NCBI GenBank assembly: GCA_963745035.1
Contig: CAVUVW010000011.1
Coordinates: 96,001-160,000, forward strand
Length of the DNA: 64,000 bases
From: an uncultured delta proteobacterium
Lineage (GTDB): Bacteria > Desulfobacterota > Binatia > UBA9968
Direction: 5' to 3'
Of this stretch, positions 32,559-53,423 are shown piece by piece. The notes under the pieces are model-generated. The model saw only the letters and a list, made by a program, of their open reading frames with translations. It had not been told where the DNA came from and ran no database searches. The position numbers and the translations under genes are program-made. The number at the start of each line of letters is the position of its first letter. The stretch's first letter is position 1.

Positions 32559-32624
32559 GATTGAACTGAATTCTCCTACTACTCAGTCCTGTGGAATTTG
32601 ACTGTAGCGTCGTTCAGTTCAAAG
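32559..32624 (+). repeat. composite site R1 (full A+B, diverged)
   Basis: GATTGAACTGA ATTCTCCT ACTACTCAGTC ... ACTGT AGCGTCGT TCAGTTCAAAG. Confidence 0.9.
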
Positions 32625-32877
32625 CAACGAAATAATTTATTGCGAGGCCTCGCGCAATGGAGTGCTAGTAGGCCACTTGATTCGGAATCAAGTTCGTTCT
32701 GCGCTCAGGCGCGTCTGCGGGTCGTGGTGTCACAGCTCTAACGGGCTTTCGCCAGATTTCTTCGAGTCGCCCCTGGCAATGGTAGAGTCGGGGTTTGACA
32801 ACTTCCTGCTATCTAACCGATAGTGACTTAACTCGCCTCGATGCTGCACGGTAGACGGCACCTCGGGAAGCAACAAA

Positions 32878-33567
32878 TTGACTAACGATGACGTCGAAAT
32901 GGTATTTCGACTGGTCGCTGCCCTTATTGCGGGAGCCTGCATCGGCTACGAGCGTTCGTATCACGGCAGACCCGCCGGTTTTCGTACACATGCGCTGGTC
33001 TGCACAGCATCCAGTCTTCTGATGCTGGTCACCGTCTATGAGGCGCACTGGGTGCGCGCAACCGCCGACCTCGTGAGACTCGACCCGACAAGGATGGCTC
33101 AAGGAATCATGACCGGAATCGGTTTTCTCGGCGCGGGCGTGATTATGAAGGATGGGCTTTCCGTCCGAGGACTCACTACGGCGGCGTCAATCTGGATTAC
33201 GGCGGCAATCGGCATTCTGGCTGGGATTGGCTTCTATTTTCCCCTGGTTGTTTCCGTCATACTCACTATCGGTATGCTGTCCGTCCTCCGCCTAGTCGAA
33301 GCTCGTATGCCTATGCAGGCGTATTATCACGTCGATATTCGTTTCACGCCGAATTCCGAGATGGGGGAAGGCACGTTGCGGGCGCTGATCGAAAGTTACG
33401 GGTTCAGTATTGCCAATTTCAGCTACCGCCTCGATGGCGAAGGCCGCGTGCGTCGTCACACCATGGTGCTGCGCAGTACCGATCGCTCCAGCGCATCGCG
33501 CCTTTCCGAGAGACTCGAGGCCACAGAGGCGGTACAGGAGTTTCGCATCGCACCCACTGGTGATTAA
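32878..33567 (+). CDS. MgtC/SapB family protein
   Basis: IGYER...PAGFRTH, DPTRMAQGIMTGIGFLGAG, GLTTAASIW. Confidence 0.92.
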   Translation: MTNDDVEMVFRLVAALIAGACIGYERSYHGRPAGFRTHALVCTASSLLMLVTVYEAHWVRATADLVRLDPTRMAQGIMTGIGFLGAGVIMKDGLSVRGLTTAASIWITAAIGILAGIGFYFPLVVSVILTIGMLSVLRLVEARMPMQAYYHVDIRFTPNSEMGEGTLRALIESYGFSIANFSYRLDGEGRVRRHTMVLRSTDRSSASRLSERLEATEAVQEFRIAPTGD

Positions 33568-33696
33568 GCCAAGCTATCACAGTGAAATCCTTCTGGAGCG
33601 CTCTTCGCGACTACTCAGTCACTCTGAAAAACTCCATCTCGATTAATGGGATACGGGCAGTGGAACCCAAATCGCCCACTTAACCCCGCCACCCGC

Positions 33697-33870
33697 TGTG
33701 CTAGTTTTGTGCTAGTTCAATCCGCAAACACAAGGAAGCACGAGCAGAGAAAAGCGGAGGCGCTCGTTTCCTGTTGGTTTCTGTGGATGTTTGTCGGTGA
33801 GCACCGACCACCACGAGACTCGAAATCAAGTTTACCCGGAAATGCTAATGACGGTCGAAATCCTTCCGCG
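33697..33870 (+). other. att-like remnant: TGTGCTAGTT direct repeat plus degenerate tRNA-Ser(CGA) 3' half
   Basis: TGTGCTAGTT x2 (33697-33717); GACTCGAAATCAAG anticodon loop at 33817-33830. Confidence 0.5.
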
Positions 33871-33884
33871 CTCGGGTGGGCTCT

Positions 33885-33914
33885 AATTGAATTAAATTCT
33901 CCACCAGTATTAGC
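33885..33914 (+). repeat. R2: core A half-site upstream of the recombinase
   Basis: AATTGAATTAA ATTCTCCA CCAGTATTAGC. Confidence 0.75.
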
Positions 33915-33972
33915 CGGGCGCTGAAACTGTCGTATCCTCCTCTCTCTAAAAACAAGGGAGAGGAGAAAAGTC

Positions 33973-34875
33973 ATGCGGCAGGTCATTCGACGATTTTTGA
34001 AGCACCTCCAAGCGGAGAAAAACGCAAGTCCATCCACCATAGAATCCTACCAATACGACCTAAACAAGTTCGACGACTATGTCGTTCATCGACTCGGAAA
34101 CAGGTTCTTACCAGGAGATATTTCCCGCGACCACATACGAGATTATCTTACGTGGCTCTCGGAAGCCATCAAAAGCCAAACGGTCCATTGGCTTGTGCAC
34201 GGGCTTTGGCAGCGATACGGTCGTTTTTTAAATACGCTCATCGAGCAGGGATGCTGAGAGACAATCCCACTGCAGATATTGCCCTTCCAAAAATCAGGAT
34301 GGGCGAAATCCGCGCTCTGTCACAGGATGAATGCGGTCGGCTTCCTGCGAGTTGTCGAGACGAATCGGAGTCCATTTAGAAAAATCAGGGACAGGGCAAT
34401 AATAGCGACATTCCTCTTAACCGGAGCGAGATTACGCGAAATTGTGCAGCTGGACAAAGCCGACATCGACCTTCATCAATCGACAGTACGGCTGCATCGT
34501 AAAGGCGGGGACATTAACATACTGCCTTTGGCTGACTCGGCAAAAACAGAACTGAAATTGTACCTAAAGCAGCGGCGGAAGAGGAGCCGCGCAAGGGCAC
34601 TATTTATATCTTGCCAGAATCGAAGAATATCACGTGGCGCGGTTTGGTATCTGGTGAAGAAATATTTCAAGAAATGCCGACTGAGAACGCGCGGCATGGG
34701 ACCACACGCTTTGCGGCATACCTTTGCGACACTGCTTTTAAGCCACGGAGAAAACCTCAGAGTCATTCAGAGTCTTATGAATCACAAAAGTCTGGCGACG
34801 ACAGCACGGTATTTGCCTTCGCGAAGCAAAGAGCTGGTAAAAGCCGTGAACGGTCTGAAGCTGTTGCGTGGCTAG
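33973..34875 (+). CDS. XerC/D-like tyrosine recombinase (two compensating frameshifts)
   Basis: SAM-like N-domain (SPSTIESYQYDL; RALAAIRSFFKY); catalytic LTGAR, RKGG, HALRH, NH, TARY; ~300 aa; no IntI-specific insertion. Confidence 0.92.
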
Positions 34876-34899
34876 AATGTGCCGTCGTTCAGTTCAATT
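34870..34899 (+). repeat. R3: core B half-site overlapping the recombinase stop codon
   Basis: GGCTAGAATGT GCCGTCGT TCAGTTCAATT. Confidence 0.85.
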
Positions 34900-35123
34900 C
34901 TGCAAGGTATCCTAAATTCGTCCCTTTTTTTCTGCATACAAAGCAACTTCTTGTGGTCCTATTAATGGAAAGCGACACGGCGAAAATAACAGAGAAGGGT
35001 GGGAGCCAACACATGTGCAGGAGATCCGTTTGCAAGACGATAGTTTCTATTTGAAGTTTGTTCAATATTAGACAGCAATCGTGACCTAGGAGTATATCGT
35101 GATGTCTCATACTGGAGGTCGTC

Positions 35124-35645
35124 ATGCGAACCATTTTTATTTTACCCTTCATATTCGCTGCTTGGATTGTGATGCCGACGGTTTCAGGCGCCCAAGTAGG
35201 AAAAGACGCTACGTCGCCGGGGCAGCTTGCACCGGGCGCTGTGCAAGGCGCACGCATGGAGAGTTGCAAGGCAAGTACCAAAACGGAAATCGCGTTGCTG
35301 TTTGACCGCTGGAATCAGTCGCTGCAGACAGGTGATCCGCGCAAGGTGGTCGCCAATTATGCGGAGCCTTCGATCCTCTTGCCCACCGTTTCAAACAAAC
35401 CACGTCTCACGCCAGCCGAGAAGGAGGATTACTTTCATCATTTCTTAGAGGACCGCCCTTCCGGCAAGATTGACTTGCGAAACGTTGAGCTTGGTTGCAA
35501 CACTGCGGTTGATGCAGGTCTTTACACCTTCACGTTTGCCAGGACAGGGGCAACGGTCAGCGGACGCTATACCTACACCTATCGCTGGAACGGTTCAGAA
35601 TGGTTAATTACAAGTCACCATTCTTCAGCGATGCCAGAGAAGTAG
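35124..35645 (+). CDS. SgcJ/EcaC/DUF4440 (NTF2-like) exported protein
   Basis: LFDRWNQSL, LLPTVS, DAGLYTF, WLITSHHSSAMPE. Confidence 0.85.
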   Translation: MRTIFILPFIFAAWIVMPTVSGAQVGKDATSPGQLAPGAVQGARMESCKASTKTEIALLFDRWNQSLQTGDPRKVVANYAEPSILLPTVSNKPRLTPAEKEDYFHHFLEDRPSGKIDLRNVELGCNTAVDAGLYTFTFARTGATVSGRYTYTYRWNGSEWLITSHHSSAMPEK

Positions 35646-35652
35646 CCGAGAG

Positions 35653-35709
35653 GCATAACCCTTTATTCCAGAGGACCGCCTGTGGCGGCCGCGGATGGAC
35701 GCGTTGTCC
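35653..35709 (+). other. degenerate integron attC site
   Basis: GCATAAC just after the stop codon, then GGACCGCCTGTGGCGGCCGC hairpin, then GTTGTCC. Confidence 0.55.
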
Positions 35710-36015
35710 GGCTGTAAGACGACGACAATTGCTACTATGCTGCGTTGAACGAAGAGAAGATCGAAAAGATGGAATTGGCGTATGAAGAGAATTTGAATTT
35801 ACAGGGACTTTTGGGCTTAGGTGATTTCAAAATATTCGGGTCAATTGTGGATATGCAGAAGTAAAGCGGGACTATACGGAACTGGAGAATCATAGTTATG
35901 CGGATGGAGAGTTCCGGAGATCCCCAGCCGTGCCGGATCGACCGTCGTCTTGCAAAGCAGTTCCAGCAGGACTACCGTCATCGAGCAATTCTAGGTGAAC
36001 GGAGGAGAACCTGTC

Positions 36016-36529
36016 GCTACACGGCGTTTCACACATCGGCCTCTCGACGCTCGACCTCGCCGCCACCCGCGCCTTCTACGAGGATGTGCTCGGCTTCCGC
36101 CTAGTGACCATTGAGCAGATCGATTTCGAAGAAGGGGGATGTATCCGCCACGCGTTCTTCGACTGTGGCGATGGCCAACTTCTCGGATTCATGGAGCCTC
36201 GCGGGATCCAAGGACTACCAGCCGAATACGACACCGGCATCAATCAAAGCCTCGGGCTACCCGAATGGTTCTACCACTTCGCCTTCAACGCTGGCTCGGT
36301 CGAAGAGTTGCACGCGAAGCGCGCGGAGCTGATTGCCAAAGGCATCAAGGTCACGGCGATCGTCGACCACGAGTGGGTGCTGTCGATCTACTTCAAAGAT
36401 CCCAACGGCCTCCTGCTCGAGTATGCGGTGCAGACGCGTGCGCCCGCCGACCCTCACGTAAGCCCGGGCAGGCGCATTATGGCCAGCATGCGTGGACCGT
36501 CCCGGGTCACCGATTTCCGCGATTCCTAG
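36016..36529 (+). CDS. VOC/glyoxalase family protein (5' end unclear)
   Basis: HGVSHIGLST, YHFAF, SIYFKDPNGLLLE. Confidence 0.8.
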
Positions 36530-36590
36530 ACCTCGGTGGGATGCATCGAGAACTCGCTATCGTGCTGGGCTCGAGATGGTGAGATGAGTC

Positions 36591-36655
36591 GCATGACCAG
36601 GCGATGAAGCAGACGGTCGCTTTCGGCGCCCGGAGCTTATCACGATCCGTTAGGC
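36591..36655 (+). other. integron attC site (R'' mutated)
   Basis: GCATGAC CAGGCGATGAAGC...GCTTATCACGATCC GTTAGGC. Confidence 0.7.
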
Positions 36656-36701
36656 GCATTGACCAGGAGAGCGCTGGTATCACAGGAAAGGAGGAAATGC
36701 C

Positions 36702-37276
36702 ATGGCAAAGCCCTCGAAATTTGCTCACATCGTTTATCGCACGAGACGCTTCGAGGAGATGATTGCTTGGTACGAAAAAGTGTTCGAAGCAAGGGTGCAA
36801 TACAAAAATCCAGCCCTCGCATTTCTTACATATGACGATGAGCATCACCGTTTCGCTTTTGGCAACCTAGAAATGCTCGATCCATCCGGTAAGGCTCCCG
36901 GCGGCAAAACCGATATCGGTGTCGACCACGTGGCTTATACATACGCAAGCCTCCGCGATCTTGTCGATACTATACACGGCTCAAGAGGGAGGGCATCAGA
37001 CCTTACTGGCCCATTCGCCACGGTCCAACCCTGTCGCTCTACTACAAAGATCCTGACGGAAACCGAATCGAGTTTCAGGTCGATTGCTTTGCGACGGCCG
37101 ATGAGGCTAATGCATATATGCGAGGAGACGGTTTCTCTTCCAATCCTATCGGCGTGAACTTCGATCCAGATGAACTGGTAGAGGAATTTAAGAAAGGCGT
37201 GCCCGAGCAGCAGCTTCTCGCCCGACCCGAAGGACCACCGGCCTCAATCCCGCGCGAGCATGGTCTTGGCGCCTAA
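36702..37276 (+). CDS. VOC family (extradiol dioxygenase III-related) protein, integron cassette gene (frameshift ~36970)
   Basis: KFAHIVYRT, TYDDEHHR, YYKDPDGNRIEFQ; stop TAA lies within GCCTAAC. Confidence 0.85.
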
Positions 37277-37351
37277 CAGCGCCTTGTTGCCCGACACCTA
37301 TGTCTCGCCGCTTCGCGCTCAGCACGGCGCGGCAAAACGCGAACGTTACGC
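37271..37351 (+). other. integron attC site
   Basis: R'' GCCTAAC ... GCGGCAAAACGCGAAC GTTACGC R'; R'' is the exact complement of the upstream GTTAGGC. Confidence 0.8.
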
Positions 37352-37507
37352 GACGTGAGGAGCATGTGATGCGACTTCCGAAGCAGGTCGTGCGTATCGT
37401 GAACGCGGTCACCAAACTTGCCCTTCTCGTAGGCATCCCACGGCCTCCATACACGGCGGGAAAACGCGCTCATCGTCGAAACCGTCGGGCCGAGCGTTAG
37501 CCATCAG

Positions 37508-37575
37508 GATTGAACTGAATTCTCCATCAACGTAATCTCGCGTGGCATCACATTGAAGCGTCGTTCAGTTCAATC
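37508..37575 (+). repeat. composite site R4 (full)
   Basis: GATTGAACTGA ATTCTCCA TCAACGTAATC TCGCGTGGCATCACATTGA AGCGTCGT TCAGTTCAATC. Confidence 0.95.
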
Positions 37576-37731
37576 TCAGGCTAAATTTGATCTTGCCATT
37601 TGATGAATACTGTCGAAGGCATCGCCGCGCGGAACGTCTGATATTCAGTCAGCGTGCTTCTCAGTTCGATGTCCGCTCGCCCTCTCATAAACGGCTTGCT
37701 TGATCGCCGCAGGTAGTCAGGGGGCCACCCA

Positions 37732-38543
37732 TCAGAAGGTTGCATGCGTGTCCTGCCATCCGAGTCCGTTCCAAAACACTGTTTCGAGCAATCGCCTTAT
37801 TTTCCGACTTGGAAGATTGCGAAAGATCCCATTGTTCGGCCCTACCATGCGGTAATCCAAATGAATCCGCCGGTAATTCCATTTGACACTGTCAAGCGGT
37901 CGCCATTCGCCAGGGGCCTCCTCGCCGAACAGCCCGCTTGAGCCGCCTTCAAACCGATGGTCGACGAAAATGCCCTCTCTTGCCGGGTTGGGGCATCGTT
38001 GCTCAGTAATAGTGAGTTGTGGGACAATCTTGAATCTCTTGTATCCCAGCTGATCGAGTAGATGCAGTTGCGTGAACGTGTCCTTGATCGACGTCGCGCT
38101 TGCCTCCACCGAAATATACTTCGGCTTCTCCTCTACGCTGAGCAGACCTTCGAGGCATACGGAATCCATTCCCTCGATATCTACTTTCATGTAGTACGGC
38201 ACACCGAATTTTAGGATGACGTCCTTGATCGTAGTCGCCTCGACCTTAACCGGATGACTCTTGAATCCTCGCGCCTCGTTTCTTTTGACCCATTCGGGGT
38301 TTGCTGTCCCCCATATGCTGACTTGCTCGTTGACAAAAAAATCGATGGTTCCGACGGTATGACTGATCGCCTTGTTGATGATCTGTAATTGGCCAGAGCC
38401 GATCGCTGCCGAGAATTTGTGTACACACTCCTCGCAGAGTTGGGCATTCGCCTCGATTCCGACGACCCGAAATCCTTTTCTGAGATAGAACTCGTGTCTT
38501 CTCCTGTATGCATTCCAACGTCATAGATTAAGTCGCCTGGCAT
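37732..38543 (-). CDS. FkbM family methyltransferase (frameshifted)
   Basis: LIYDVGMHTGEDT, PYYMKVDIEG, PKYISVE. Confidence 0.85.
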
Positions 38544-38651
38544 CTCGTAATCTCCAGGGTTATGAATACGCGCCGATCCGTCTCTCGAAAGATCGTCATC
38601 GCTTCGGGCACAACGGCGCTTTTCGACTCAACGATGGGTCCGAAACCCGTC

Positions 38652-38798
38652 TGTGCTGGTTTGTGCCAGAACCAGAGCAGAACAAACACCTCCCATTGTC
38701 TAACACCCAGGAGGTGAACATTAAAATAGTTGGATTTTTTCGTTGATGTTCCGCTCTGGTTTGGCCCCGACTTGGCTCTTAATCAGCGGGTCCGGGGT
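38652..38798 (+). other. att-like remnant: TGTGCYRG direct repeat plus tRNA-Lys(CTT) fragment
   Basis: TGTGCTGG/TGTGCCAG at 38652-38669; GGCTCTTAATCAGCGGGTCCGGGGT at 38774-38798. Confidence 0.6.
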
Positions 38799-38812
38799 GT
38801 TCTGGATGCTAG

Positions 38813-38880
38813 GATTGAATTGAATTCTCCACCAACGCAATCTCGCGCGGCATCACATTGAAGCGTCGTTCAGTTCAATC
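38813..38880 (+). repeat. composite site R5 (full)
   Basis: TAG GATTGAATTGA ATTCTCCA CCAACGCAATC ... TTGA AGCGTCGT TCAGTTCAATC CTA. Confidence 0.95.
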
Positions 38881-38960
38881 CTACGGGTCCGCGAGCACTT
38901 CTTATTTGACAAATCCCTTCGTTCGGCGTGATAAATAACGCTCGAAACTCTGGGTGTGCA

Positions 38961-39626: not shown

Positions 39627-42600
39627 ATGACTGCTACAGCTCCAATTATCACGCTCTCGCCGCGGGATTACGACGCGGTTTTGTTCGACCTCGACGGTGT
39701 ACTGACGAAAACGGCGACCGTGCATGCCGCGGCATGGAAAAAACTGTTCGATGGATATCTAAAGCAGCGCGCCCAAGACACCGGAGGACCCTTCGTCGCC
39801 TTCGACATCGATGCCGACTACCTGCGCTATGTCGACGGCAAACCGCGTTACGATGGCGTGGTGTCTTTTCTCCACTCGCGCGGAATTGATTTGCCGTTGG
39901 GTTCGGCCGGCGACGCGCCCGGCACGGGAACGGTACATGCTCTCGGCAAGCTAAAGGATCGATACTTCACGGAGAGTCTGGAGGAGCAAGGCGTCGAGAC
40001 TTATGAACCGACGATCTCTCTCGTGCGCACGCTGCGCGCGCAAGAGATCAAGACCGCGGTCGTCTCTTCGAGCAACAACTGCGCGGCAGTTCTGCAGGCC
40101 GCCGGCATCGCGCATCTTTTCGATACGCGGGTTGATGGCAGGGAGATCGCCCGCCTCGCGCTCAAAGGCAAGCCGGCGCCCGATGCTTTCCTCGAAGCGG
40201 CGCGGCGTCTGGCTGTCGAGCCGTCCCGCGTCGTCGTCGTGGAGGACGCGATCGCCGGCGTCGCTGCGGGACGTGCCGGCCGTTTCTGCTGTGTGATCGG
40301 TGTCGATCGAGGTGGGCATTCTAAGGCGCTGCGTGAGGCCGGTGCTAATGTCGTGGTAACGAGCTTGGCGCAGGTTAGGATCAGTCCAGAACCCGCCTCC
40401 GCCTGGACGCTAGTGTATGAAGGATACGAGCCAGCGCGGGAAAGAATCCGCGAAGCCCTATGCGCGCTAGGGAACGGCTATTTCGCTACTCGTGGAGCAG
40501 CGACCTGGGCGCGGGCGGATGAGATTCACTACCCCGGGACCTACCTCGCCTGCGGCTATAACCGAATGCGCACTGATATTGCGGGCCGGATTGTCGAAAA
40601 CGAAGATCTCGTCAATCTTCCCAATTGGCTCCCCCTCGAATTTCGTATCGGCGAGGAGGACTGGTTCGATCCGGCGACGGTCACGATCCGTCTTTATGAT
40701 CAGCGGCTAGATCTGCGACGTGGCATGCTGCTGCGAACGATCCGCTTCGAAGATCGCCAGGGGCGGCAGACTACGCTGAAGGAACGCCGTCTGGTGTCCA
40801 TGAGCGACATGCATGTGGCGGCGCTCGAGCTGAGTCTTTCTGCCGAGAATTGGTCGGCCAAGGTCACGGTGCGTGCATCAATCGACGGCCGGATTGTCAA
40901 TAGCGGCGCGCAGCTCTACCTCAAATTCAACAACAAACATCTCGAGTTGCTGGAGCGCCAGGTCCTCGACAGCGACGGCGTTTATATGCTCGTGCGCACC
41001 AGCCAGTCACATATTTACGTCGCCCAGGCGGCGCGAACTCAAGCGTTTGTCGACGGCAAAATCCGTGAGGTGCCGCGCCGTGTTATCGAAGAGCCGGAAT
41101 ACATCGGGCAAGAGATGGTGATCGACGTGCGGCAGGGCGAGACTTTGGCCCTCGAGAAGATCGCGTCTTTCTACACCTCGCGTGATCAAGCTATTTCGGA
41201 GTGCGGTTTGGCGGCGCGTAAGGCGATTGGCCGGGCGGGCCGCTTTGACGCGGTGATGGCCGAGCATGTTCTTTCCTGGAAGCACTTGTGGCGCCGCTTC
41301 GATGTGCATATTCAGCCGGCCGAACCGGGATTCAAACTGAATGTACTGATGCTGTTGCGGCTGAACATGTTTCATCTCTTGCAGGCCGTCTCGCCCAACT
41401 CGATCGGACTCGATATCGGCGTGCCGGCGCGCGGCTGGACCGGCGAGGCCTACGAGGGCCACATTTTTTGGGACGAGCTTTTTATTTTTCCGTTCCTAAA
41501 TTATCGCATGCCGGAAATCACCCGCTCGTTGCTATTGTACCGCTATCGCCGTTTGGGGGAGGCGCGTGCCGCAGCGAGAATGGCGGGGTTGCGGGGCGCG
41601 ATGTTTCCCTGGCAAAGCGGCAGCGACGGGCAGGAAGAGACGCAGGAGCTCAACTTCAACCCGCGCTCACAGCGCTGGGTGCCGGACAATTCTTACCTGC
41701 AGCGCCATGTCGGCAGCGCCATCGCTTACAACGCTTGGCAGTATTATCAAGTCACTCACGATGTCGAGTTTATGCAAGCCCATGGCGCCGAGCTGATTCT
41801 CGAAATCGCTCGCTTTTGGTCGAGTATCGCGAGTTTCAACGAGGAGAGCGGTCGGTACGAGATTAGCGGGGTTATGGGCCCGGACGAGTTCCACGAGGGA
41901 TACCCCGGCTCATCGTCGCCCGGCCTTAATAACAATGCCTTCACTAACCTCATGGCGGCTTGGGTGCTGTGCCGCGCGCTCGATGTGCTCGAACTCCTTC
42001 CCGACATACGCCGCGCCGAGCTGAGCGCCCGACTCGGGCTATCGCCTGACGAGATTGTGCGATGGGGCGAAGTGAGCCGCAAGATGGTCGTGCCCTTTCA
42101 CGGCGACGGCATCATCAGCCAGTTTACAGGGTATGAAAATCTCGCTGAGCTGAACTGGGCGGACTACCGCGCCCGCTACGGCAATATTCAGCGGCTCGAT
42201 TTGATTCTGGAAGCCGAGAACGACAGTGCGAACCGCTACAAATTATCGAAGCAAGCCGACGTGCTGATGTTGTTTTATCTGTTTTCCGCGCAGGAGCTGG
42301 GCGAGCTGTTCAGGCGTTTAGGTTATCCGTTCGACCCTGAGATGATTCATCGCAACGTTGCCTACTATGACGCGCGCTCGTCGCATGGTTCGACGCTCTC
42401 GCGCGTAGTCCATGCGTGGGTGTTGGCGCGTTCGGACAGGCCGCGCTCGATGACTTATTTCGCCGAGGCACTGCAGAGCGATGTCAGCGATATTCAGCAA
42501 GGGACTACCGCCGAAGGTGTTCATCTCGGCGCTATGGCGGGATCGGTAGATCTGGTGCAGCGCGTCTCGACAGGCATCGAAATTACCGGCGACGTTCTGC

Positions 42601-42869
42601 GACTCGATCCACAATTGCCCCAGGAAATGGAGCGGCTCGACATGCGCATTCGCTACCGCGGACATTCGCTCGATTTGCGGCTAACCCGCGATACCCTGAC
42701 AGTGCGCGGCCGCGAGCGCGGTGTCGCTGCGATCAAGCTGGGAATCAAAGACGAGGTATACGACTTTCAATGCGGCAGCACGCGCGTCTTCAAACTCACC
42801 CGCGAACAGGCTGAAAGCAATGCATCAGATAGGACGATCACCGCCAAGGGCCGAAGAGCCCGAAGCTAA
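39627..42869 (+). CDS. HAD (beta-phosphoglucomutase-like) plus GH65 trehalose/maltose phosphorylase-family fusion
   Basis: FDLDGVLT, GKPAPD, LGNGYFATRG, GHIFWDE, GPDEFH, KQADV, HGSTLS. Confidence 0.92.
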   Translation: MTATAPIITLSPRDYDAVLFDLDGVLTKTATVHAAAWKKLFDGYLKQRAQDTGGPFVAFDIDADYLRYVDGKPRYDGVVSFLHSRGIDLPLGSAGDAPGTGTVHALGKLKDRYFTESLEEQGVETYEPTISLVRTLRAQEIKTAVVSSSNNCAAVLQAAGIAHLFDTRVDGREIARLALKGKPAPDAFLEAARRLAVEPSRVVVVEDAIAGVAAGRAGRFCCVIGVDRGGHSKALREAGANVVVTSLAQVRISPEPASAWTLVYEGYEPARERIREALCALGNGYFATRGAATWARADEIHYPGTYLACGYNRMRTDIAGRIVENEDLVNLPNWLPLEFRIGEEDWFDPATVTIRLYDQRLDLRRGMLLRTIRFEDRQGRQTTLKERRLVSMSDMHVAALELSLSAENWSAKVTVRASIDGRIVNSGAQLYLKFNNKHLELLERQVLDSDGVYMLVRTSQSHIYVAQAARTQAFVDGKIREVPRRVIEEPEYIGQEMVIDVRQGETLALEKIASFYTSRDQAISECGLAARKAIGRAGRFDAVMAEHVLSWKHLWRRFDVHIQPAEPGFKLNVLMLLRLNMFHLLQAVSPNSIGLDIGVPARGWTGEAYEGHIFWDELFIFPFLNYRMPEITRSLLLYRYRRLGEARAAARMAGLRGAMFPWQSGSDGQEETQELNFNPRSQRWVPDNSYLQRHVGSAIAYNAWQYYQVTHDVEFMQAHGAELILEIARFWSSIASFNEESGRYEISGVMGPDEFHEGYPGSSSPGLNNNAFTNLMAAWVLCRALDVLELLPDIRRAELSARLGLSPDEIVRWGEVSRKMVVPFHGDGIISQFTGYENLAELNWADYRARYGNIQRLDLILEAENDSANRYKLSKQADVLMLFYLFSAQELGELFRRLGYPFDPEMIHRNVAYYDARSSHGSTLSRVVHAWVLARSDRPRSMTYFAEALQSDVSDIQQGTTAEGVHLGAMAGSVDLVQRVSTGIEITGDVLRLDPQLPQEMERLDMRIRYRGHSLDLRLTRDTLTVRGRERGVAAIKLGIKDEVYDFQCGSTRVFKLTREQAESNASDRTITAKGRRARS

Positions 42870-43307: not shown

Positions 43308-43337
43308 GATTGAACTGATTTCTCCATCAATTCAGGT
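43308..43337 (+). repeat. R6: solo core A
   Basis: GATTGAACTGA TTTCTCCA TCAATTCAGGT. Confidence 0.9.
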
Positions 43338-43719
43338 GGAGCGCAGCGCTCGGTGCTTCCCCGGCCTCTCCAGACTGGGAGTCTGGCGCGGCGATATCTA
43401 TGGTGGCATGTCTGGAGGGAGAGATTTAGTCAGCGCTTTCGAGCGTGCAACCGTCCGGCGCGACCTTGAAGATTGAAGCATCGGGAATCGTCACGTAGCC
43501 GTCCAGCCGCTTGCAGTAGTACAGCTTGACGATCGTTTCGCTTGGTATCAGTTCGCCCTCCGGGTCAATGATTTCCCGAAGACAAAAATAAGCAAGCTGA
43601 AAAGAACGTCACCGAAGAAGAAGACAAGAAGAGCGCGCTTAATTGCAGGTGCCATTGTCACACGCCGAAACACAAGCACTAGCGGGTCTTCAGCTCTAAC
43701 TGTGCTTGATAAACGCGGA

Positions 43720-46221: not shown

Positions 46222-46251
46222 AACTGAATTGAATTCTCCGCCGGTACACTA
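46222..46251 (+). repeat. R7: degenerate solo core A
   Basis: AACTGAATTGA ATTCTCCG CCGGTACACTA. Confidence 0.55.
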
Positions 46252-46849: not shown

Positions 46850-46913
46850 GATTGAACTGATTTCTCCATCAAGCCAATCTTGCCAGATTAATGGTGCGTC
46901 GTTCAGTTCAATC
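46850..46913 (+). repeat. composite site R8 (full, short linker)
   Basis: GATTGAACTGA TTTCTCCA TCAAGCCAATC ... TGCGTCGT TCAGTTCAATC CTA. Confidence 0.92.
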
Positions 46914-47026
46914 CTACGTCCAAATTAGCCTTTTCTCCCTCGATGAATCGGTTTTCCTTCTGCCGTAAATAACACTTTTCTCAGCTTCCGTGTCCGTGAT
47001 AAGTCTTGTCACGAACGAGGCGCGAA

Positions 47027-48027
47027 ATGAAAAAACGAGTTGGTCATCAATCCTGGTTGCAGCCATGCTGCTCGCTGTTGCAGTCATAGCCGAGGCGCAG
47101 CAGCAGGCGAAGAAGGTACCTCGGATAGGGTATCTAGCATCGAGAGACCCGGCTACGGAGTCCACGCGGTCCGAGCCAGTTCGACTGGCTCTGCGGGAGC
47201 TTGGCTACATAGAAGGAAAGAACGTCGTCATCGACTACCGATATGCGGAGGGGAAGCGTGATCGCTACCCTGAGCTTCTGGCCGAACTGGTCCGTCTCAA
47301 GGTTGATGTCATCGTGGCAGCAGGAGGCGAGCCGACGGTCCGGGCGGCCATTAAAGCGACGAAGACGATTCCCATCGTAATGACAGGTGGTGGGGCCGAT
47401 CCTGTCGAGGCAGGCTATATCAAAAGCCTTGCCCGTCCCGGCGGCAACGTCACCGGCATTACGAACCTTGGCTTAGAGCTAGGCGGAAAACGGCTGGAGT
47501 TGCTCAAAGAAGCTCTTCCCAAGGTGGCCCGTGTCGCGGTTCTCTACGATCCGGCGGCAGGTTCAGACTTCCTACGCGAGGTGAATGAGGATCTCCCAAT
47601 CGCGGCACATGGGTTGGGTTTGGATATTCGGTCTTGGGAGGCACGAGCTGTGGGCGATTTCGAAAGGATATTCGCTGCGCTAAACAAGGAGCGCCCCGAT
47701 GGGCTCTATGTGACCGGGAGCCTGCTCTTTCATACTAACCGAAAACGGATTGTCGAGTTTGCGTTACAGAGCCGGTTACCGTCTGTATACAGTAGAAGAG
47801 AATATGTAGATGAAGGGGGGCTCATATACTATGGGGCGGACCTCGCGGACAGCTACCGGCGTGTCGCATATTACGTGGACAAAATTCTCAAAGGTACGAA
47901 GCCTGCGGACTTGCCTGTCGAACAACCTGCAAAGTTCGAGCTGGCGATCAATCTTAAAACCGCAAAGCAGATCGGTCTGACGATTCCACAAAAAGTGTTG
48001 TCGCGGGCGGATAAGGTGATCAAGTAA
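47027..48027 (+). CDS. ABC transporter substrate-binding protein (ABC_sub_bind, Trp/Tyr-type)
   Basis: LRELGYIEGKN, SLARPGGNVTG, GTKPADLPVEQP, RADKVIK*; start probably frameshifted in an A-run. Confidence 0.92.
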
Positions 48028-48044
48028 CCACCCGGCGACGCTAG

Positions 48045-48104
48045 GATTGAACTGAATTCTCCATCTAATCAGTCTCGCCTTAGATCAACCTGAAGCGTCG
48101 TTCA
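48045..48104 (+). repeat. composite site R9 (last arm truncated)
   Basis: GATTGAACTGA ATTCTCCA TCTAATCAGTC ... GATCAACCTGA AGCGTCGT TCA. Confidence 0.9.
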
Positions 48105-48227
48105 TGTTGGAGCCGCATTCGAAAAAGCGAAGATAGAGCGTACCCAAGGGCTTCTCGTAAATGCTCGATTCCGATCGGGTTAAAGCCCTCCAATAAAGCA
48201 TTTTCTTCCTTCCCAAATTTTTTACAC

Positions 48228-48257
48228 GATCAAACTGAAGCGTCGTTTAGTTGAATT
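48228..48257 (+). repeat. R10: solo core B
   Basis: GATCAAACTGA AGCGTCGT TTAGTTGAATT. Confidence 0.85.
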
Positions 48258-48646
48258 CTAGGCGCGCCAACCCTGCCGCCAAGCTGAAAGCGCCTCGCAA
48301 AAAACTGTTTCACCTCCGCTGTTTCTCAGAGAAACGGAGGTGACGGTGACCTCTGTCCGTACAAGAAAATTCATCGATCCGCCGTTGGAGGCCCACCGCC
48401 TCGGGCTACTCATTAAAGGGATGTGAGTAAATTTCCTACCGACTCTAACTCTGAGTGTCTGCTTATCCAAACATTGTGAAAGGTTTGTTCACTAAATTTC
48501 ACGCGGTTGTGCTGGCATATGGATTGCCAGACTAAAAAGGATGTGAATTCACCTACTCAGCCCTACGAAGCGCGACTTGTGTGTAGGGTCAGTCGTTTTT
48601 AACCGGGATGGCCTTAAAAAGAGAAATAAAACAAATAAAGTAGTTT

Positions 48647-49066
48647 ATGAAAAAAATCTTCTCGGCGCTCCTATTTTTACAACTCTTGGTGTTGGCATTG
48701 ATGGCGCCGAATCTGTTTGCAGATGAAAGACGGGAATTCATTTCGAAAACAATGAATCCGGAGGTTCAAAAGCTTTTGGAAAACTGCGGCAGAGAAATAA
48801 TTGGCGAGGAGCCATTTTCAAGCAAGAATAATAATATCATGAACTATATGATCGGCTTTTATGATACCGATCACGGTTTGCTTGTTACGCTTCAAGCATT
48901 ACAGCAACGATTAAATGAGCATGGACGCGCGATCCCGGATGTTTATTCTAGCGAACTTGTGGCGATTGTATTCGTTGATCGATCGCTCTTGTGGTATAAA
49001 TCTCAAACCGCTAAGAGCACCTTAAAAGCAAAAATGGCGCGGTTAATGCAAAACCGATCTATTTAA
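48647..49066 (+). CDS. hypothetical exported protein, AT-rich
   Basis: 139 aa with signal peptide MKKIFSALLFL. Confidence 0.65.
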   Translation: MKKIFSALLFLQLLVLALMAPNLFADERREFISKTMNPEVQKLLENCGREIIGEEPFSSKNNNIMNYMIGFYDTDHGLLVTLQALQQRLNEHGRAIPDVYSSELVAIVFVDRSLLWYKSQTAKSTLKAKMARLMQNRSI

Positions 49067-49246
49067 GCAGGCACCCTGCTTTTTATTTTTCTTTGAGTCC
49101 CGCATCGTAACATACCTCGAACTCCTCTCAACTTAGACGCCCTCCGTGCCGTTATCATCGAGCGCCGAACACTTTGCGAGTGACCCCTCACCCGTTTGGG
49201 TAGATCTTAGGAACCAGTTTATTAAACAACCATGCGACGATGCCAG

Positions 49247-49294
49247 GATTGAACTGAATTCTCCATCAACGCAATCTCGCCTGAAACACATTGA
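49247..49294 (+). repeat. R11: core A plus linker, truncated at spacer B
   Basis: GATTGAACTGA ATTCTCCA TCAACGCAATC TCGCCTGAAACACATTGA. Confidence 0.9.
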
Positions 49295-49589
49295 CGTTCG
49301 CATGTGTCCTCAGTGTAAGTCGCCGCACGTGCCGAAAGACCAGAGGCGGGAGCGCTAAGATGCCATTTCGCGTTATGCGGCGATGGGCCTTATACATGCG
49401 ACATTTCCCGTTCTCGCGAATGGAAAACTTAGATGTTTAGAACGCGCAGCGAGAGAGAGGAGGCAGAAAATGTGTGGACTAGAAATCTTTACTGATTAGA
49501 GTGCGGCTATCCCATGGATGGTTGGTGGTTACTCAGTACGTTTGGTCGGGACTTGGAATATCTGCCAAACAGGCATCAGTCGCCCGTGG

Positions 49590-49889
49590 TTACTTGATCA
49601 CTCTATCCGAAGCGCCCATATCCAAAGTGTCCTCTCTCCCCGCCCGCGCCAGCACATTCGGCGGAATCGTCACCCGCGATGAACGTTCGGCGTCCGGGAC
49701 GAGTGACAGATCCGGTTTTCCATCATCGATCCATTTCTTTGCGAATCTAAGACCGTCCATTTCCGCTTCTTCTCGTAGACGAAACGTTCGATTAACAGTT
49801 AACTTACTAGTTATCCCTTTACCATCTTCGCTCCAAATTATTGTAAGGCATAGCTTCCACTGACGCGGGGCCAGTCGCGAGGAGGACAC
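49590..49889 (-). CDS. small KKWIDDGKP-type protein fused to an ABC SBP C-terminal tail
   Basis: EEAEMDGLRFAKKWIDDGKP then VTIPPNVLARA...DRVIK*. Confidence 0.55.
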   Translation of the reverse strand: MSSSRLAPRQWKLCLTIIWSEDGKGITSKLTVNRTFRLREEAEMDGLRFAKKWIDDGKPDLSLVPDAERSSRVTIPPNVLARAGREDTLDMGASDRVIK

Positions 49890-49959
49890 GAGGATCCTAT
49901 GACCTTTGTGAGTTGCGTTGATGAATTTTTCTCCTAGATGTTGGTGGGCGAGTTCCTAC

Positions 49960-50352
49960 TTAGGAAGCCAGCAAATGGGTCCGCAGGACATCCCGTAGCA
50001 GTGGCAATTGTAACGGCTTGTACAAGATCTCTGCAGCGCCGGCATTAAGCGCGCGGTCGGCACGTTCTTCAACGTTGAAGTCGGTGGTCCACCCGCTATT
50101 TAAGACCACCGGGATATTGCGAGTGGACATATTCCTCTTTAATTGCACCGTTACTTCATCTCCATTTAACCCGGGCAAACGTATGTCCATCATGATCAGA
50201 TCAGGACGAAGGCTGAAAGCCTTGTCGAGGCCCTCTGGACCCGTAGCCGCTTCGACAACTTCGTGGCCCAAACCATTGAAAAACCCTCGAAGCGATTCTC
50301 GAAACTTTTCGTTGCCATCGACGATCAATATTTTTTTAGCCGTGTTGTGCAT
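49960..50352 (-). CDS. single-domain response regulator receiver
   Basis: KILIVDG, PDLIMMDIRLPGLNG, KP. Confidence 0.88.
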   Translation of the reverse strand: MHNTAKKILIVDGNEKFRESLRGFFNGLGHEVVEAATGPEGLDKAFSLRPDLIMMDIRLPGLNGDEVTVQLKRNMSTRNIPVVLNSGWTTDFNVEERADRALNAGAAEILYKPLQLPLLRDVLRTHLLAS

Positions 50353-50525
50353 GGAAGAAGCCTAGCAGCACAAGATATGCCAGCGCTTCAAATGTCAGTA
50401 TTTTGGTATTTTGTCGCCTTTAGCGCCTATGCAGCGATGTTTGGCGCTGCGACTTGCTTGGAGAATGACTGTCACTTTGCCAAGATTCGCGGGCCGTGCC
50501 TGCTCAGCCTTGGCGTTAGCGCCAG

Positions 50526-50594
50526 GATTGAACTGCATTCTCCATCAACGCAATCTCGCGTGGCATCAACATTGAAGCGTCGTTCAGTTCAATC
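50526..50594 (+). repeat. composite site R12 (full)
   Basis: GATTGAACTGC ATTCTCCA TCAACGCAATC ... ATTGA AGCGTCGT TCAGTTCAATC. Confidence 0.95.
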
Positions 50595-51202
50595 TCAGGC
50601 TAAATCTGGTCCTCCCAGTCGACGAATATCTGTTGCCTTCGTATCGTAAATCCGAGTTTCGTAGCGATTCGAATTCAGCCAGATCTTCGAGGCTCATCGC
50701 CCAGGATAAACAAAGACTCTGCCGGGAAATCTCCCCTTGGGCTAAAACGTGGGATCAATACATCATCGCGCCGGATTATGATTATAATTTACTCGGTGGG
50801 TGCGCTGGGTGTAGAGTTCGTATATTGGTTGAATCTCTCTTTTAAGGGGAAACTTTATGGATAAAAATGCGCCTGGCCTTGATGTCGGAACTAAGTGCGG
50901 ACATTCGTGTACAAGACTAGATGGCCCCATTAAGAATGACTTTGGTTGTTGTATTTGTATGGGCGAGACGCAGTTGTGTACATCGTGCGAAAAGAGAAGA
51001 CTCTCGGAAGATCCCGTTGGGGAGAAGGACGAAAGTGTCAACACACCTGGAAGCCGAAAAGATTAAGGTTTAGGAACCGGCGTTGGATCGACGGCCTCGG
51101 CTAGAATAGCGCGAATCAACCGGATCTTTTGCCCGACAACTTTTTGAGATCGTAAGTTACGGTCTCGTGGCGCGGGCGGGTAAAGTGATGAAGTGACGCC
51201 AA

Positions 51203-51232
51203 GATTGAACTGTATTCTCCATCAATTCAATT
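51203..51232 (+). repeat. R13: solo core A
   Basis: GATTGAACTGT ATTCTCCA TCAATTCAATT. Confidence 0.9.
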
Positions 51233-51321
51233 TCACGTCGATGACCCTGGAGTGCTACGGTCCGTGCTGCCCGGCCCTTTTCCTGCGCGGGCGGACAGAG
51301 TGATAAAATAAGGAGCGCATT

Positions 51322-51984
51322 ATGATCGGTGCCAAGGCTCTGTTAGAAGGGATTCGGCAAGATTTGCAGCCCGTCACGGAACGGCTTCTGGGGCATCCTT
51401 ACGTGAAGGCTCTGGAGGAAGGGCAGATTGAGCGGGAGAAGCTCCGTCTTTTTGCCGGCGAGCAGTACAGCATCATAGCGAGTGATCTCAAAAGCGTCGC
51501 TTATTTGCTTAGCCGCTTCGGTAGCGCTCCGAGCCGTGATTTCTTTCTCGGAATCCTGCAGGGTGAAAGAGCTGCCTGGGATGGCTTGCTAACGTTCGTC
51601 AATGCCCTCGGCCTAAGCGAAGCTCAACTGAGCAAGCACGAGCCAGCGGCTGGCGCTCATGCCTACACCTGCTACATGGCGTGGCTTGCGCTCTATGCCT
51701 CTGACGCCGAGATTGCTGCTGCCTACCTGGTCAATTTTCCAGCGTGGGGTCAGAACTGTGGCCGCCTGAGCCGGATTCTGAAAGAGCGTTTCGGTATGGG
51801 CGAGAAGGAAGTCGCTTTTTTTGATCTCTTCGCCTCTCCTCCAACTACATTTGAAGCCGACGCTCTGAAAGTTATTCAGCAGGGACTCGATCGAGGCATC
51901 GAGCCGAGCCTGATCCAACGGGCGGCTCGGTTACTCCAGGCCTACGAGCTCATGTATTGGGATACCCTCTACGGGGCGTCTTAG
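51322..51984 (+). CDS. TenA/THI-4 family protein
   Basis: HPYVKAL..G, AYTCYMAWLA, YELMYWD. Confidence 0.85.
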   Translation: MIGAKALLEGIRQDLQPVTERLLGHPYVKALEEGQIEREKLRLFAGEQYSIIASDLKSVAYLLSRFGSAPSRDFFLGILQGERAAWDGLLTFVNALGLSEAQLSKHEPAAGAHAYTCYMAWLALYASDAEIAAAYLVNFPAWGQNCGRLSRILKERFGMGEKEVAFFDLFASPPTTFEADALKVIQQGLDRGIEPSLIQRAARLLQAYELMYWDTLYGAS

Positions 51985-52045
51985 CCGTGCTGGCAGGGCG
52001 GATAAAGTGATCGAGTGAGCGAAGAAAACCAAGCGGCAATGCTAG

Positions 52046-52113
52046 GATTGAACTGAATTCTCCATCAAACCAATCTTACGTCTCATCCAACTGAAGCGTC
52101 GTTCAGTTCAATC
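52046..52113 (+). repeat. composite site R14 (full)
   Basis: TAG GATTGAACTGA ATTCTCCA TCAAACCAATC TTACGTCTCATCCAACTGA AGCGTCGT TCAGTTCAATC CTA. Confidence 0.95.
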
Positions 52114-52264
52114 CTACATGGCTGTTTTTGTGATGGTCTGGCCGAATAGGCCGCCGATTCGTTAGGCAGATAAGCTGCCGTGCCGGTCGGCTTTTTAGCG
52201 AAAAACTCTAACGTTGACAATCCAGGTGAGCTGATGGATATTCCACGCAATTTGAACTTTTATT

Positions 52265-52340
52265 GTCCAAGCTGTCGCCGAGATAAGCCGACCGGCATTT
52301 GTCGCCGCCTACGGCGGCGCGGCTCACTTAATAGTTAGAC
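52265..52340 (+). other. degenerate attC ending in GTTAGAC
   Basis: GCCGCCTACGGCGGC hairpin, GGCTCACTT, R' GTTAGAC at 52334-52340. Confidence 0.6.
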
Positions 52341-52374
52341 CTCATTAACCATCGACACGTTTAGGGAGGCGACT

Positions 52375-53170
52375 ATGGAACCCAACCTGCATACGGATGC
52401 CAATAAGTACCAGGCCGGGATGGGAGGCTGGAGTAAAACTCTTGCTCCTCTATTCATCGAATTTATAGGAGGTATCAAAGAAGGGGATCGGGTGTTAGAT
52501 GTAGGCTGTGGTACGGGTTCACTCACAAACACCATTGCTGATACAACAAAAGCCGCAACAGTTATCGGCATCGACCCTTCAGTAGGCTACTTAGAATATG
52601 CCCGTACACACAATACACGTTCGCACGTTTCCTTTGAAATCGGGGATGCTCAGAAACTTTCCTATGACAATGGCTCTTTCGACTGCTGCGTATCTTCGTT
52701 GATGATTCAATTTGTCTCGGCTGCGGACGCGGCAGCAAGAGAAATGAGGCGCGTCACAAAGAACGCGCGGAACTGTTGCAACTTGTGTATGGGACAACAG
52801 TGGAGGCATGGAGTTAGCCGAAAGATTCTGGGATGCGGCCATTGCAATTGACCCAGAAGCCAAACGAACTGGGAATAGCCGTTATGGATCGCCAAGCGCG
52901 CTTTCAGATTTGTGGAGCGCCGCTGGTTTTGCGAATGTTGAAACAGGACCTCTGGTTATTCCTATGGAGTTTCCTTCCTTCGAGGATTTGTGGCGCATTC
53001 AGTCAGATGCGCAGGGACCGCCTAAACTTTATATCAGCAGTCTGTCTGAGGATCGCCGACAGTTATTGAAGGAGCGACTACGCGCGGACATTCTTGGTAA
53101 TCGCCCTCATGGATCGATTAGCCTTCGTGCAAAGGCTTGGGCAGTGCGTGGGATAGTGCCGGCAGGGTAG
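52375..53170 (+). CDS. class I SAM methyltransferase, integron cassette gene (frameshift ~52770)
   Basis: RVLDVGCGTG, IGIDPS, AKAWAVRG; ORFs 52375-52851 and 52808-53170. Confidence 0.85.
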
Positions 53171-53294
53171 ATTTTCGACGGACTAGTTTGCGCAAATTGG
53201 AGTAGCTGTGATCCATCCATCCTAGTAAACGAAGCGAACGGATAATCTTCTTATCGCTTGGGCGTGGCCGCGTGTCGGTTTCGCATTGTGTGGT

Positions 53295-53351
53295 GTCTAA
53301 CTTTCCGCTTCAAGCCGCCGCATGACGCGCGGGCTGAGCGCGGCGTTAGCG
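53295..53351 (+). other. integron attC site
   Basis: R'' GTCTAAC (complement of upstream GTTAGAC) ... GCTGAGCGCGGC GTTAGCG. Confidence 0.7.
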
Positions 53352-53355
53352 CCAG

Positions 53356-53423
53356 GATTGAACTGAATTCTCCATCAAACCAATCTTACGTCTCATCCAA
53401 CACAAGCGTCGTTCAGTTCAATA
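53356..53423 (+). repeat. composite site R15 (full; island right end)
   Basis: GATTGAACTGA ATTCTCCA TCAAACCAATC TTACGTCTCATCCAACACA AGCGTCGT TCAGTTCAATA. Confidence 0.95.

Follow-up and report, generated by a model that had tools for sequence, protein, structure and literature searches.

A candidate integron-like cassette platform without IntI in uncultured Binatia, based on composite 68-bp repeats and a family of small Xer-like recombinases

A 64-kb stretch of DNA from an uncultured delta proteobacterium belonging to the Binatia (source genome G000, contig C11, positions 96001-160000; the whole stretch is called the window, and C-numbers denote contigs of G000) contains a 21-kb array in which unrelated genes are separated by same-direction copies of a 68-bp repeat, and in which two half-copies enclose the pseudogene of a Xer-like tyrosine recombinase. 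The reading towards which we lean, by a modest degree, is that a distinct family of small Xer-like tyrosine recombinases uses these repeats as its recombination sites. The repeats probably belong to an integron-like cassette platform which does not use IntI, and the array in the window looks like a decayed instance of it. A first-pass annotation had proposed that the recombinase integrates or excises cargo at these direct repeats, building a gene-capture array analogous to integrons and independent of them; this interpretation is partly supported.

The observation of the repeat itself is confirmed. A scan of the window with the 11-nt arm motif, allowing at most one mismatch, gave 18 matches where 1.1 were expected, a number reached in 0 of 100 shuffles, and all 18 fall within 32559-53423. 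Repeat finding grouped 13 left and 9 right halves into families, at the coordinates of the first-pass annotation, which had listed 15 copies or half-copies; with an nhmmer profile, 12 copies pass E <= 0.01 and the right half at 34873 follows with E 0.046, and the weak left halves at 33885 and 46222 were detected by pattern matching only. By repeat finding, nhmmer and pattern matching taken together, a full or partial copy is present at every listed position. Seven copies are full (32559, 37508, 38813, 46850, 50526, 52046, 53356), six consist of a left half or of a left half continued without the last arm (33885, 43308, 46222, 48045, 49247, 51203) and two are right halves only (34870, 48228). 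The same annotation had described the copies as lying on one strand and as essentially intergenic. Indeed, all 15 are on the + strand of the window, and they are placed between open reading frames (ORFs) supported by Pfam, with the right half at 34870 overlapping the stop codon of the recombinase. Their spacing is irregular (0.2-4.5 kb), which together with the palindromic units excludes CRISPR repeats. The copies and their extents are as follows.

32559..32626, + strand: full composite site, first of the array, last arm degenerate (nhmmer E 1.3e-16)
33885..33930, + strand: left half-site, left end of the recombinase unit (repeat family D3; homology to the unit of locus L029 begins at 33886)
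34870..34899, + strand: right half-site, right end of the recombinase unit, overlapping the stop codon (homology to the L029 unit stops at 34898)
37508..37575, + strand: full composite site (nhmmer E 1e-23; fold)
38813..38880, + strand: full composite site (nhmmer E 1e-23)
43308..43344, + strand: left half-site, followed by a repeated segment resembling an insertion sequence (IS) to about 45143 (repeat finding)
46222..46243, + strand: degenerate left half-site (family D3, 81%; pattern match with 1 mismatch)
46850..46913, + strand: full composite site (nhmmer E 1.2e-17)
48045..48104, + strand: site with left half, centre and spacer B, without the last arm (repeat finding)
48228..48263, + strand: right half-site (repeat finding, nhmmer)
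49247..49294, + strand: left half-site (nhmmer)
50526..50594, + strand: full composite site (nhmmer E 3.5e-23)
51203..51240, + strand: left half-site, preceded by a remnant of the 3' end of a solute-binding protein (SBP) gene (repeat family D7)
52046..52113, + strand: full composite site (nhmmer E 8e-23)
53356..53423, + strand: full composite site, last of the array (nhmmer E 5e-21)

Structurally, the repeat is a composite of two core-type halves, and in either half inverted arms of 11 nt enclose a spacer of 8 nt. Core A comprises arm 1 (GATTGAACTGA), spacer A (ATTCTCCA) and a variable arm 2 (e.g., TCAAnnCAATC); after a centre of 5-9 nt, core B follows with a variable arm 4 (e.g., ATCnnAYTGA), spacer B (AGCGTCGT) and arm 3 (TCAGTTCAATC). 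Arm 1 is complementary to arm 3 and arm 2 to arm 4; spacers A and B are conserved and not complementary. As a duplex, the repeat thus consists of two tyrosine-recombinase core-type sites (11-8-11) in mutually inverted order. In a folded single-stranded copy, an outer stem of 11-12 bp leads through an internal loop (about 7 by 7 nt) to an inner stem-loop, and the fold z-scores of the sites range from -2.9 to -4.6. The 49 sites compared, taken from several genomes, hardly vary in arm 1 and spacer A or in spacer B and arm 3, and it is in arm 2, the centre and arm 4 that the subfamilies differ. In the RNAalifold consensus of these 49 sites only an outer stem of 9 bp is kept, the pairing register of the inner arms differs between subfamilies, and position 8 of arm 1 changes from C to T in 16 sites with no compensating change in arm 3; for this reason, folded single strand and duplex cores are not separated as the active form. 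The bottom strand folds better by 0.7-2.2 kcal/mol in all three sites tried, a sample too small to use. A module of about 40 nt (GGAG..CGGTCCGTGCTGCCYGGCCCT) stands after some left halves and before one right half (window 51240-51278 and 43337-43375; C13:1123728, C13:1956411, C13:1958995 and C17:2860); it may be a site variant with a long centre or a separate element.

The gene between the left half at 33885 and the right half at 34870 belongs to a family of Xer-like tyrosine recombinases, and it was characterised by comparing the three-frame translation with the intact homologue at locus L081 (305 amino acids).

33973..34875, + strand: Xer-like tyrosine recombinase pseudogene

The gene begins in frame 0, continues for some 65 codons in frame 2 and returns to frame 0, which indicates two compensating frameshifts. 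As the first-pass annotation had stated, the protein retains the catalytic R, K, HxxR, H and Y and is devoid of the IntI insertion, a helix-forming extra segment of the catalytic domain that lies between conserved patches two and three: in an alignment, a 29-residue block is present only in the IntI of G000 and is absent from the window protein, L081 and L080. Every NCBIfam match of the window protein is below its cut-off, and its C-terminal part reaches 49.9 bits with the IntI profile TIGR02249. The intact L081 protein scores 199.9 bits for XerD (cut-off 329.6), 198.3 for XerC (335.15), 185.6 for XerA (220) and 69.6 for TIGR02249 (265), the last of which is matched by the true IntI of G000 at 445 bits. 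In the protein collection searched, at least 387 proteins belong to the family at E <= 1e-20, most of them on contigs of 1-3 kb, as expected for repeated DNA. In plasmid records only relatives at the level of XerD were found, at no more than 34% identity. A different tyrosine recombinase of 278 amino acids (Phage_integrase with a SAM-like N-terminal domain), 30-34% identical to L081, occurs inside GATTGAAC arrays of other metagenome-assembled genomes (MAGs), at L034 6530-7363, L036 3782-4678, L042 4096-4929 and L030 1750-2076.

The sites are physically tied to this recombinase family, also outside G000, and this conclusion is supported by several loci. The unit at 33886-34898 (1.0 kb) is 90-91% identical to a unit at L029 in another genome, the identity extending exactly from arm 1 to arm 3, and the flanks of the two units are unrelated. 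In seven of the eight homologue loci with upstream sequence, a left-type site precedes the start codon by no more than about 150 nt, and in seven of nine a right-type site follows the stop codon by no more than about 130 nt. Among 34 loci of other MAGs with GATTGAAC sites, two hold a homologue (at least 57% identity), each directly after a left half. Most sites flanking homologues belong to a divergent sequence family, in which the outer arm is TTAATTGCGTC and both the architecture and the spacer GCGTCG are shared (L086, L080, L093, L089); L086 carries a full composite site, L093 and L089 have several same-direction sites beside the gene, and the cargo at such loci includes a SnoaL-like protein, an ABC_sub_bind SBP and a FadL-type porin.

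Cognate sites also accompany the recombinase of L081 and of G033, the one relative with an intact close homologue. These sites are of the TTAATTGC type, and in L081 inverted cores flank the recombinase gene; an invertible switch was considered from this arrangement and rejected, as it leaves the same-direction arrays unexplained. The cognate 19-nt core occurs 93 times in the 3.2 Mb of G033 (reversed-pattern control 0 and 1), 35 times in its congener G031 and 0 times in G000. The spacing of the sites in G033 and G031 is about 0.1-4 kb, mostly 0.5-3 kb, and on all 27 contigs with at least two sites every listed site points the same way. Of 24 sites inspected in the two genomes, 7 are composites (centre about 80 nt) and 17 are single right-type cores. 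In neither genome was an IntI found at E <= 1e-40.

As the same two halves end the 1.0-kb unit, this unit can be regarded as the autonomous form and the 68-bp sites as the gene-less form. The identity of the ends, together with the large excess of short copies over genes, also suits an alternative in which the repeats are derivatives of the kind known as miniature inverted-repeat transposable elements (MITEs): gene-less offspring of a small tyrosine-recombinase element, inserting with a target preference into cassette arrays and accessory islands, so that the intervening genes would be residents which were never mobilised. The location of most homologues on contigs of 1-3 kb, as for multi-copy repeats, fits this alternative as well. 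We regard it as unlikely. The sites have one orientation per cluster and on all of the multi-site contigs of G033 and G031, which independent insertions of a near-palindrome would not produce; no target-site duplication was found, and the flanks prolong the inverted repeat. Moreover, most of the inspected G033 and G031 copies are single cores rather than paired ends, and cargo units that are recognisable by their characteristic ends, 5' as well as 3', are found again between sites of different arrays.

The distribution of the repeat was examined in G000 and its relatives. The earlier statement that no copy exists outside the interval holds for the 64-kb window, where neither the motif scan nor nhmmer found one outside 32559-53423, and fails for the genome, which has 46 nhmmer matches at E <= 0.01 on 10 contigs. 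Rather than being scattered genome-wide in both orientations, the behaviour that the first-pass annotation had named as contrary to its proposal, these matches form about 12 clusters, and every one of them shares the orientation of its cluster. About 9 of the 12 clusters start with a lone right half, and in the shortened copies at 48045, C26:82176 and C26:96605 arm 3 alone is lost, all that precedes it being retained as far as the end of spacer B. The left-half pattern is present in 20 of 24 genomes of the same genus, in 4 of 5 of the sister family and in 0 of 11 of a third family (the tallies over relatives for the repeat, IntI, close homologue and NMT1-SBP orthologues include the unpublished genome G005), and one genome, G018, has at least 54 copies. 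The other carriers are labelled Candidatus Binatia or "uncultured delta proteobacterium" MAGs, a few short contigs bearing other labels. MAGs are incomplete, and binning often misses short contigs rich in repeats. A second repeat family was also observed, made up of runs of three to five tandem 9-bp units (GTTCAAnnC), which in the window form inverted pairs on either side of a GC-rich hairpin; such runs lie at 29182-29328 and 27759-27840 of the window and at 1432-1486, 2245-2299 and 19290-19335 of L012 and at 2225-2263, 2704-2762, 3026-3082 and 9840-9953 of L015. In two relatives, a run of this type stands just upstream of intI.

The cargo consists of mutually unrelated genes in both orientations, as the first-pass annotation had described it, most of them on the strand of the sites (8 on + and 1 on - among those supported by Pfam or NCBIfam). 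The genes of the array and its two flanks, other than the recombinase, are listed below.

30993..32456, + strand: left flank gene, DUF748 family, outside the array (Pfam PF05359 E 3.4e-31)
32878..33567, + strand: cargo, MgtC/SapB family protein (NCBIfam NF007431 E 3.7e-35)
35124-35645, + strand: cargo, SnoaL/DUF4440-like protein (Pfam)
36139-36582, + strand: cargo, ORF without a Pfam match; a 50-nt repeat (D11) is common to it and the next gene
36702-37157, + strand: cargo, glyoxalase-fold protein (Pfam)
37732..38543, - strand: cargo, two small ORFs without a Pfam match (ORF list, Pfam)
39627..42869, + strand: cargo, HAD phosphatase fused to a GH65 glycoside phosphorylase, 1080 amino acids (Pfam PF03632 E 2.9e-129)
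46990..48027, + strand: cargo, ABC_sub_bind SBP (Pfam PF04392)
49960..50352, - strand: cargo, response-regulator receiver domain (Pfam PF00072)
51322..51984, + strand: cargo, TENA/THI-4 family protein (Pfam)
52375..52851, + strand: cargo, S-adenosylmethionine-dependent methyltransferase (Pfam PF13649)
53502..54542, - strand: right flank gene, NMT1-type SBP (Pfam)

The units between sites are modular. The cassette 37508-38836 is duplicated at C26:82181-83489 with 95% identity and the cassette 51168-52115 at C13:1123646-1124598 with 96.6% identity, in both cases with different neighbours; a right half with a 225-bp leader recurs in five loci, and the ABC_sub_bind SBP cassette type recurs in arrays on C1, C2, C6, C13 and C14. 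The segment 43337-45143, which contains short broken ORFs only, is likewise repeated in the genome (C20:54378, 93% identity; C26:57078; C12:63467; C1:2870), and it is probably an IS remnant inserted into a site. Comparison of the cargo between relatives, which the first-pass annotation had recommended, revealed on the NMT1-SBP side that the array is missing in all six relatives examined: the flank of the orthologue has neither the repeat nor this cargo. In five of the six (L095-L100), the DNA past the 3' end of the NMT1-SBP gene matches C11:89.5-120 kb of G000. The array therefore lies at a synteny breakpoint, and the match implies that about 40 kb were inverted in G000, the array marking one of the breakpoints.

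In the arrays, a site begins shortly after the stop codon of the cargo gene, at 7-20 nt for SBP genes, which are the commonest cargo; they occur also at the divergent-site locus L089, and L029 has three consecutive ones. In G000, the ABC_sub_bind SBP family has undergone a huge expansion, with dozens of tandem paralogues outside the arrays (C17:177-204 kb, C14:386-414 kb, C2:1-27 kb). The large tandem families, the short distance past the stop codon and the hairpin folds of the sites would all agree with a passive repeat, i.e., palindromes similar to repetitive extragenic palindromes (REP), terminators or regulatory elements that ride with duplicated genes, the SBP genes especially, in arrays formed by tandem duplication and homologous recombination. 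This explanation is nevertheless very improbable in our judgement. All 10 listed SBP paralogues outside site arrays, including those of the tandem families on C2, C14 and C17, are without the repeat, and many cargo genes are unrelated to SBPs. No T-run follows the site hairpin, no Rfam family matches the repeat, and the five Y1_Tnp matches of the genome are not adjacent to any cluster. In addition, the halves bracket the recombinase gene in several lineages.

The relation of the sites to true integrons requires separate consideration. G000 encodes a true IntI at C6:42038-43168 (TIGR02249), beside a lexA-like gene recognised by eye from the start of its translation; the two together lie at C6:42038-43974 (L001). 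No attC was found within about 20 kb of this intI, which therefore looks In0-type. At E <= 1e-40, IntI is present in 13 of the 24 same-genus genomes; both IntI and the repeat occur in families f1 and f2 and neither in f3 (0 of 11). In relatives, the canonical attC has the form GCCTAAC-N5-GGCTTGAGA...TCTCAGCC-N5-GTTAGGC, and its consensus fold comprises an R box, an unpaired spacer, an L box with one extrahelical base and a variable loop. Strict palindrome and regular-expression scans missed attC sites visible by eye and were replaced by a covariance model, R1, for which 8 attC sites adjacent to intI genes of relatives were used. Canonical attC arrays are present in G000 on C23 and C13, and the model identified two sites in the window.

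37271..37351, + strand: canonical attC site (model R1, 24 bits, E 4.4e-4)
53295..53351, + strand: canonical attC site, ending 5 nt before the last composite site (model R1, 18.8 bits, E 0.013)

On this basis, it can be asked whether the 68-bp repeats are an unusual class of attC and the window a cluster of attC sites lacking an integron-integrase (CALIN), served in trans by the IntI of G000. The shared lineage distribution of IntI and the repeat and the presence of canonical attC in the same arrays and orientation point in this direction, as does the existence of the IntI gene itself. Two inverted simple sites are also the layout of the classical 59-base element, which the repeat recalls, and the core motifs of attC are RYYYAAC (R'') and GTTRRRY (R'); the outer arms, with their AAC...GTT, contain ATTGAAC and GTTCAAT, each agreeing at 6 of 7 positions. 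Quite low odds must still be given to this explanation. With filters off, model R1 recovered none of the 15 copies at E <= 10 and only canonical attC sites, so the repeat is not a canonical attC, in agreement with the first-pass annotation, which had set the sites apart from attC. Its arms are of 11 nt and its spacers of 8 nt, 4 paired bases stand between the AAC of the outer arm and the unpaired spacer, and single extrahelical bases are absent. The repeat is present in 0 of 16 regions around the intI genes of 10 relatives, at least 4 of which hold canonical attC arrays; its halves are the ends of another recombinase's gene; and no IntI at E <= 1e-40 was found in G018 or in G033 with its 93 cognate sites, both assemblies being about 80% complete. 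The CALIN as defined in PMC4889954 is a group of two or more recognisable attC sites at short distances from each other and away from any intI; the window has two, but 16 kb apart, and no intI, the gene being on C6. The asserted independence from integrons accordingly stands in part: the lack of the IntI insertion and the failure of the sites in the attC model agree with it, and the true intI gene of G000 and the attC sites abutting at least 7 repeats do not.

Returning to the repeats as recombination sites of the Xer-like family, the enzyme that would cut them, the position of the cut and the movement of cargo by this route are what we infer from the arrangement of genes and sites. Recombination between two same-direction sites would excise a circle consisting of one cargo segment and one site, and re-insertion of the circle at another site would give rise to same-direction arrays of unrelated cargo. 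Site copies seeded next to genes would turn those genes into cassettes. The crossover would most likely take place in core B. An exchange in this core is favoured by the conservation of spacer B between site families (GCGTCG), by the lone right half at the start of most G000 clusters and the loss of arm 3 only in shortened copies, and by the sufficiency of single right-type cores in G033.

Several observations weigh against this mechanism. The window recombinase is broken by its two frameshifts, and the two other copies found in GATTGAAC arrays are damaged too (a 27-amino-acid in-frame deletion in L029, frame breaks in L040). The gene is present in only one of the roughly 12 G000 clusters, that of the window. 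The co-occurrence of repeat and recombinase clade, which the first-pass annotation had put forward as a check, needs qualification: at E <= 1e-30 a close homologue is found in 1 of 40 relatives and is missing from the other 39, though 24 of 40 carry the repeat, and among 400 further genomes of the phylum there is none at E <= 1e-40. Because the sole G000 copy of the family is frameshifted, the 21-kb array is probably quiescent, a fossil, or dependent on an enzyme supplied in trans. Furthermore, a canonical attC ends 10-12 nt (from GTT to the first arm) before at least 7 sites, in the same orientation and with support from the model. The pairs of attC and GATTGAAC site are at window 53295-53356, C26:96554, C26:82085, C17:2741, C10:16665, C14:611636 and C13:1956493, and at least 10 such cases are visible by eye. 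This fixed spacing is not explained by the proposed model; it resembles target-site choice, a point in favour of MITE-like insertion.

Recombination events were also sought. No excision circle, empty site or site-bounded indel of cassette size was seen in public-run contigs or in 50 array loci. Part of the stretch is contained in 20 public runs of 7 studies, of which 4 runs from 4 studies were examined; their contigs are short and break at the sites, and the short sides of the joints (21-48 letters) fit several sites. A form skipping 51278-52090 is present in two runs with sides of 22 letters; like the other joints it is ambiguous, and no conclusion on excision, circles or cassette order was drawn from them. 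An all-against-all megablast of the 50 array loci gave one indel candidate, a deletion inside cargo rather than at a site. Besides, 68-bp repeats with more than 85% identity could shuffle cargo by homologous recombination alone. The inference that the recombinase integrates or excises cargo is thus favoured by the link between gene and sites (in the window, L029 and metagenome loci) and by the 93 same-direction sites of G033, and weakened by the lack of any observed event and by the frameshifted gene.

When compared with known systems, the arrays share with integrons the same-direction, short, imperfectly palindromic sites separating unrelated genes mostly on the strand of the sites, the construction of a site from two inverted simple sites with non-complementary spacers, the occurrence of arrays with and without a nearby recombinase, and the scale of large arrays (93 sites in 3.2 Mb). 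They differ from integrons in that the recombinase is without the IntI insertion and far below the IntI cut-off (69.6 against 265 bits), the sites, with their 11-nt arms and 8-nt spacers, fail the canonical attC model, the recombinase gene lies inside a split site rather than beside an attI, and single 32-bp cores suffice in one site family. A second comparison concerns the pdif modules, whose sites are 11-6-11, alternate in orientation and use the host XerC and XerD. The sites described here are same-direction with 8-nt spacers and have a dedicated mobile recombinase, which scores below both the XerC and the XerD cut-off. Cargo bounded by core-type Xer-like sites with two arms and a short spacer is nevertheless common to these arrays and the pdif modules of Acinetobacter plasmids (PMC7399989), and the cargo segments here are flanked by cores with arms in inverse order. 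The platform would therefore work like integrons and pdif modules and yet be set apart from them, since the membership tests of both failed.

Insertion sequences with their MITE derivatives also have a gene-bearing unit and many short gene-less copies with identical inverted ends; here the enzyme is a tyrosine recombinase and not a DDE or HUH transposase, no target-site duplication was seen, and the copies are same-direction and clustered with cargo between them. From REP elements and their associated tyrosine transposases (RAYT) the system differs by the absence of an adjacent Y1 (HUH) transposase and by the confinement of copies to about 12 clusters. XerS/difSL and XerH/difH are lone Xer-like recombinases encoded beside their own core site, with one site per chromosome, and serve dimer resolution. 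The proximity of gene and core site is the same here, whereas tens of sites per genome flank accessory genes. The dimer resolvases XerC, XerD and XerA likewise have a single dif-type site per replicon, against 46 copies in G000 and 93 in G033; a search with a standard dif consensus gave three poor matches only. Literature searches, largely at the level of titles and abstracts and including PMC4889954 and PMC8138268, returned no description of such a system in the text covered.

A wider reading can be put forward tentatively, with a weight that stays a little below even. The arrays may represent a second class of bacterial cassette platform without IntI, in which a mobile Xer-like recombinase, whose sites (with the GCGTCG spacer) double as the ends of its gene, has seeded these sites beside genes and thereby given same-direction arrays in uncultured soil Binatia, intermixed with true integron cassettes. 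To our knowledge, no other system than the integron is well established as one where a single recombinase collects and reshuffles promoterless genes at short structured sites, and how cassettes acquire their sites in integrons is still an open question. If true, cassette platforms would have evolved more than once, here with a simpler Xer-like enzyme, and a mobile site which is the end of the recombinase's own small element would be a concrete route to cassette creation. The system would also provide a new compact pair of recombinase and site for probing the need for single- or double-stranded substrates. For the Binatia, an abundant and uncultured soil lineage, it would account for part of their large accessory genome and for the fragmentation of their assemblies.

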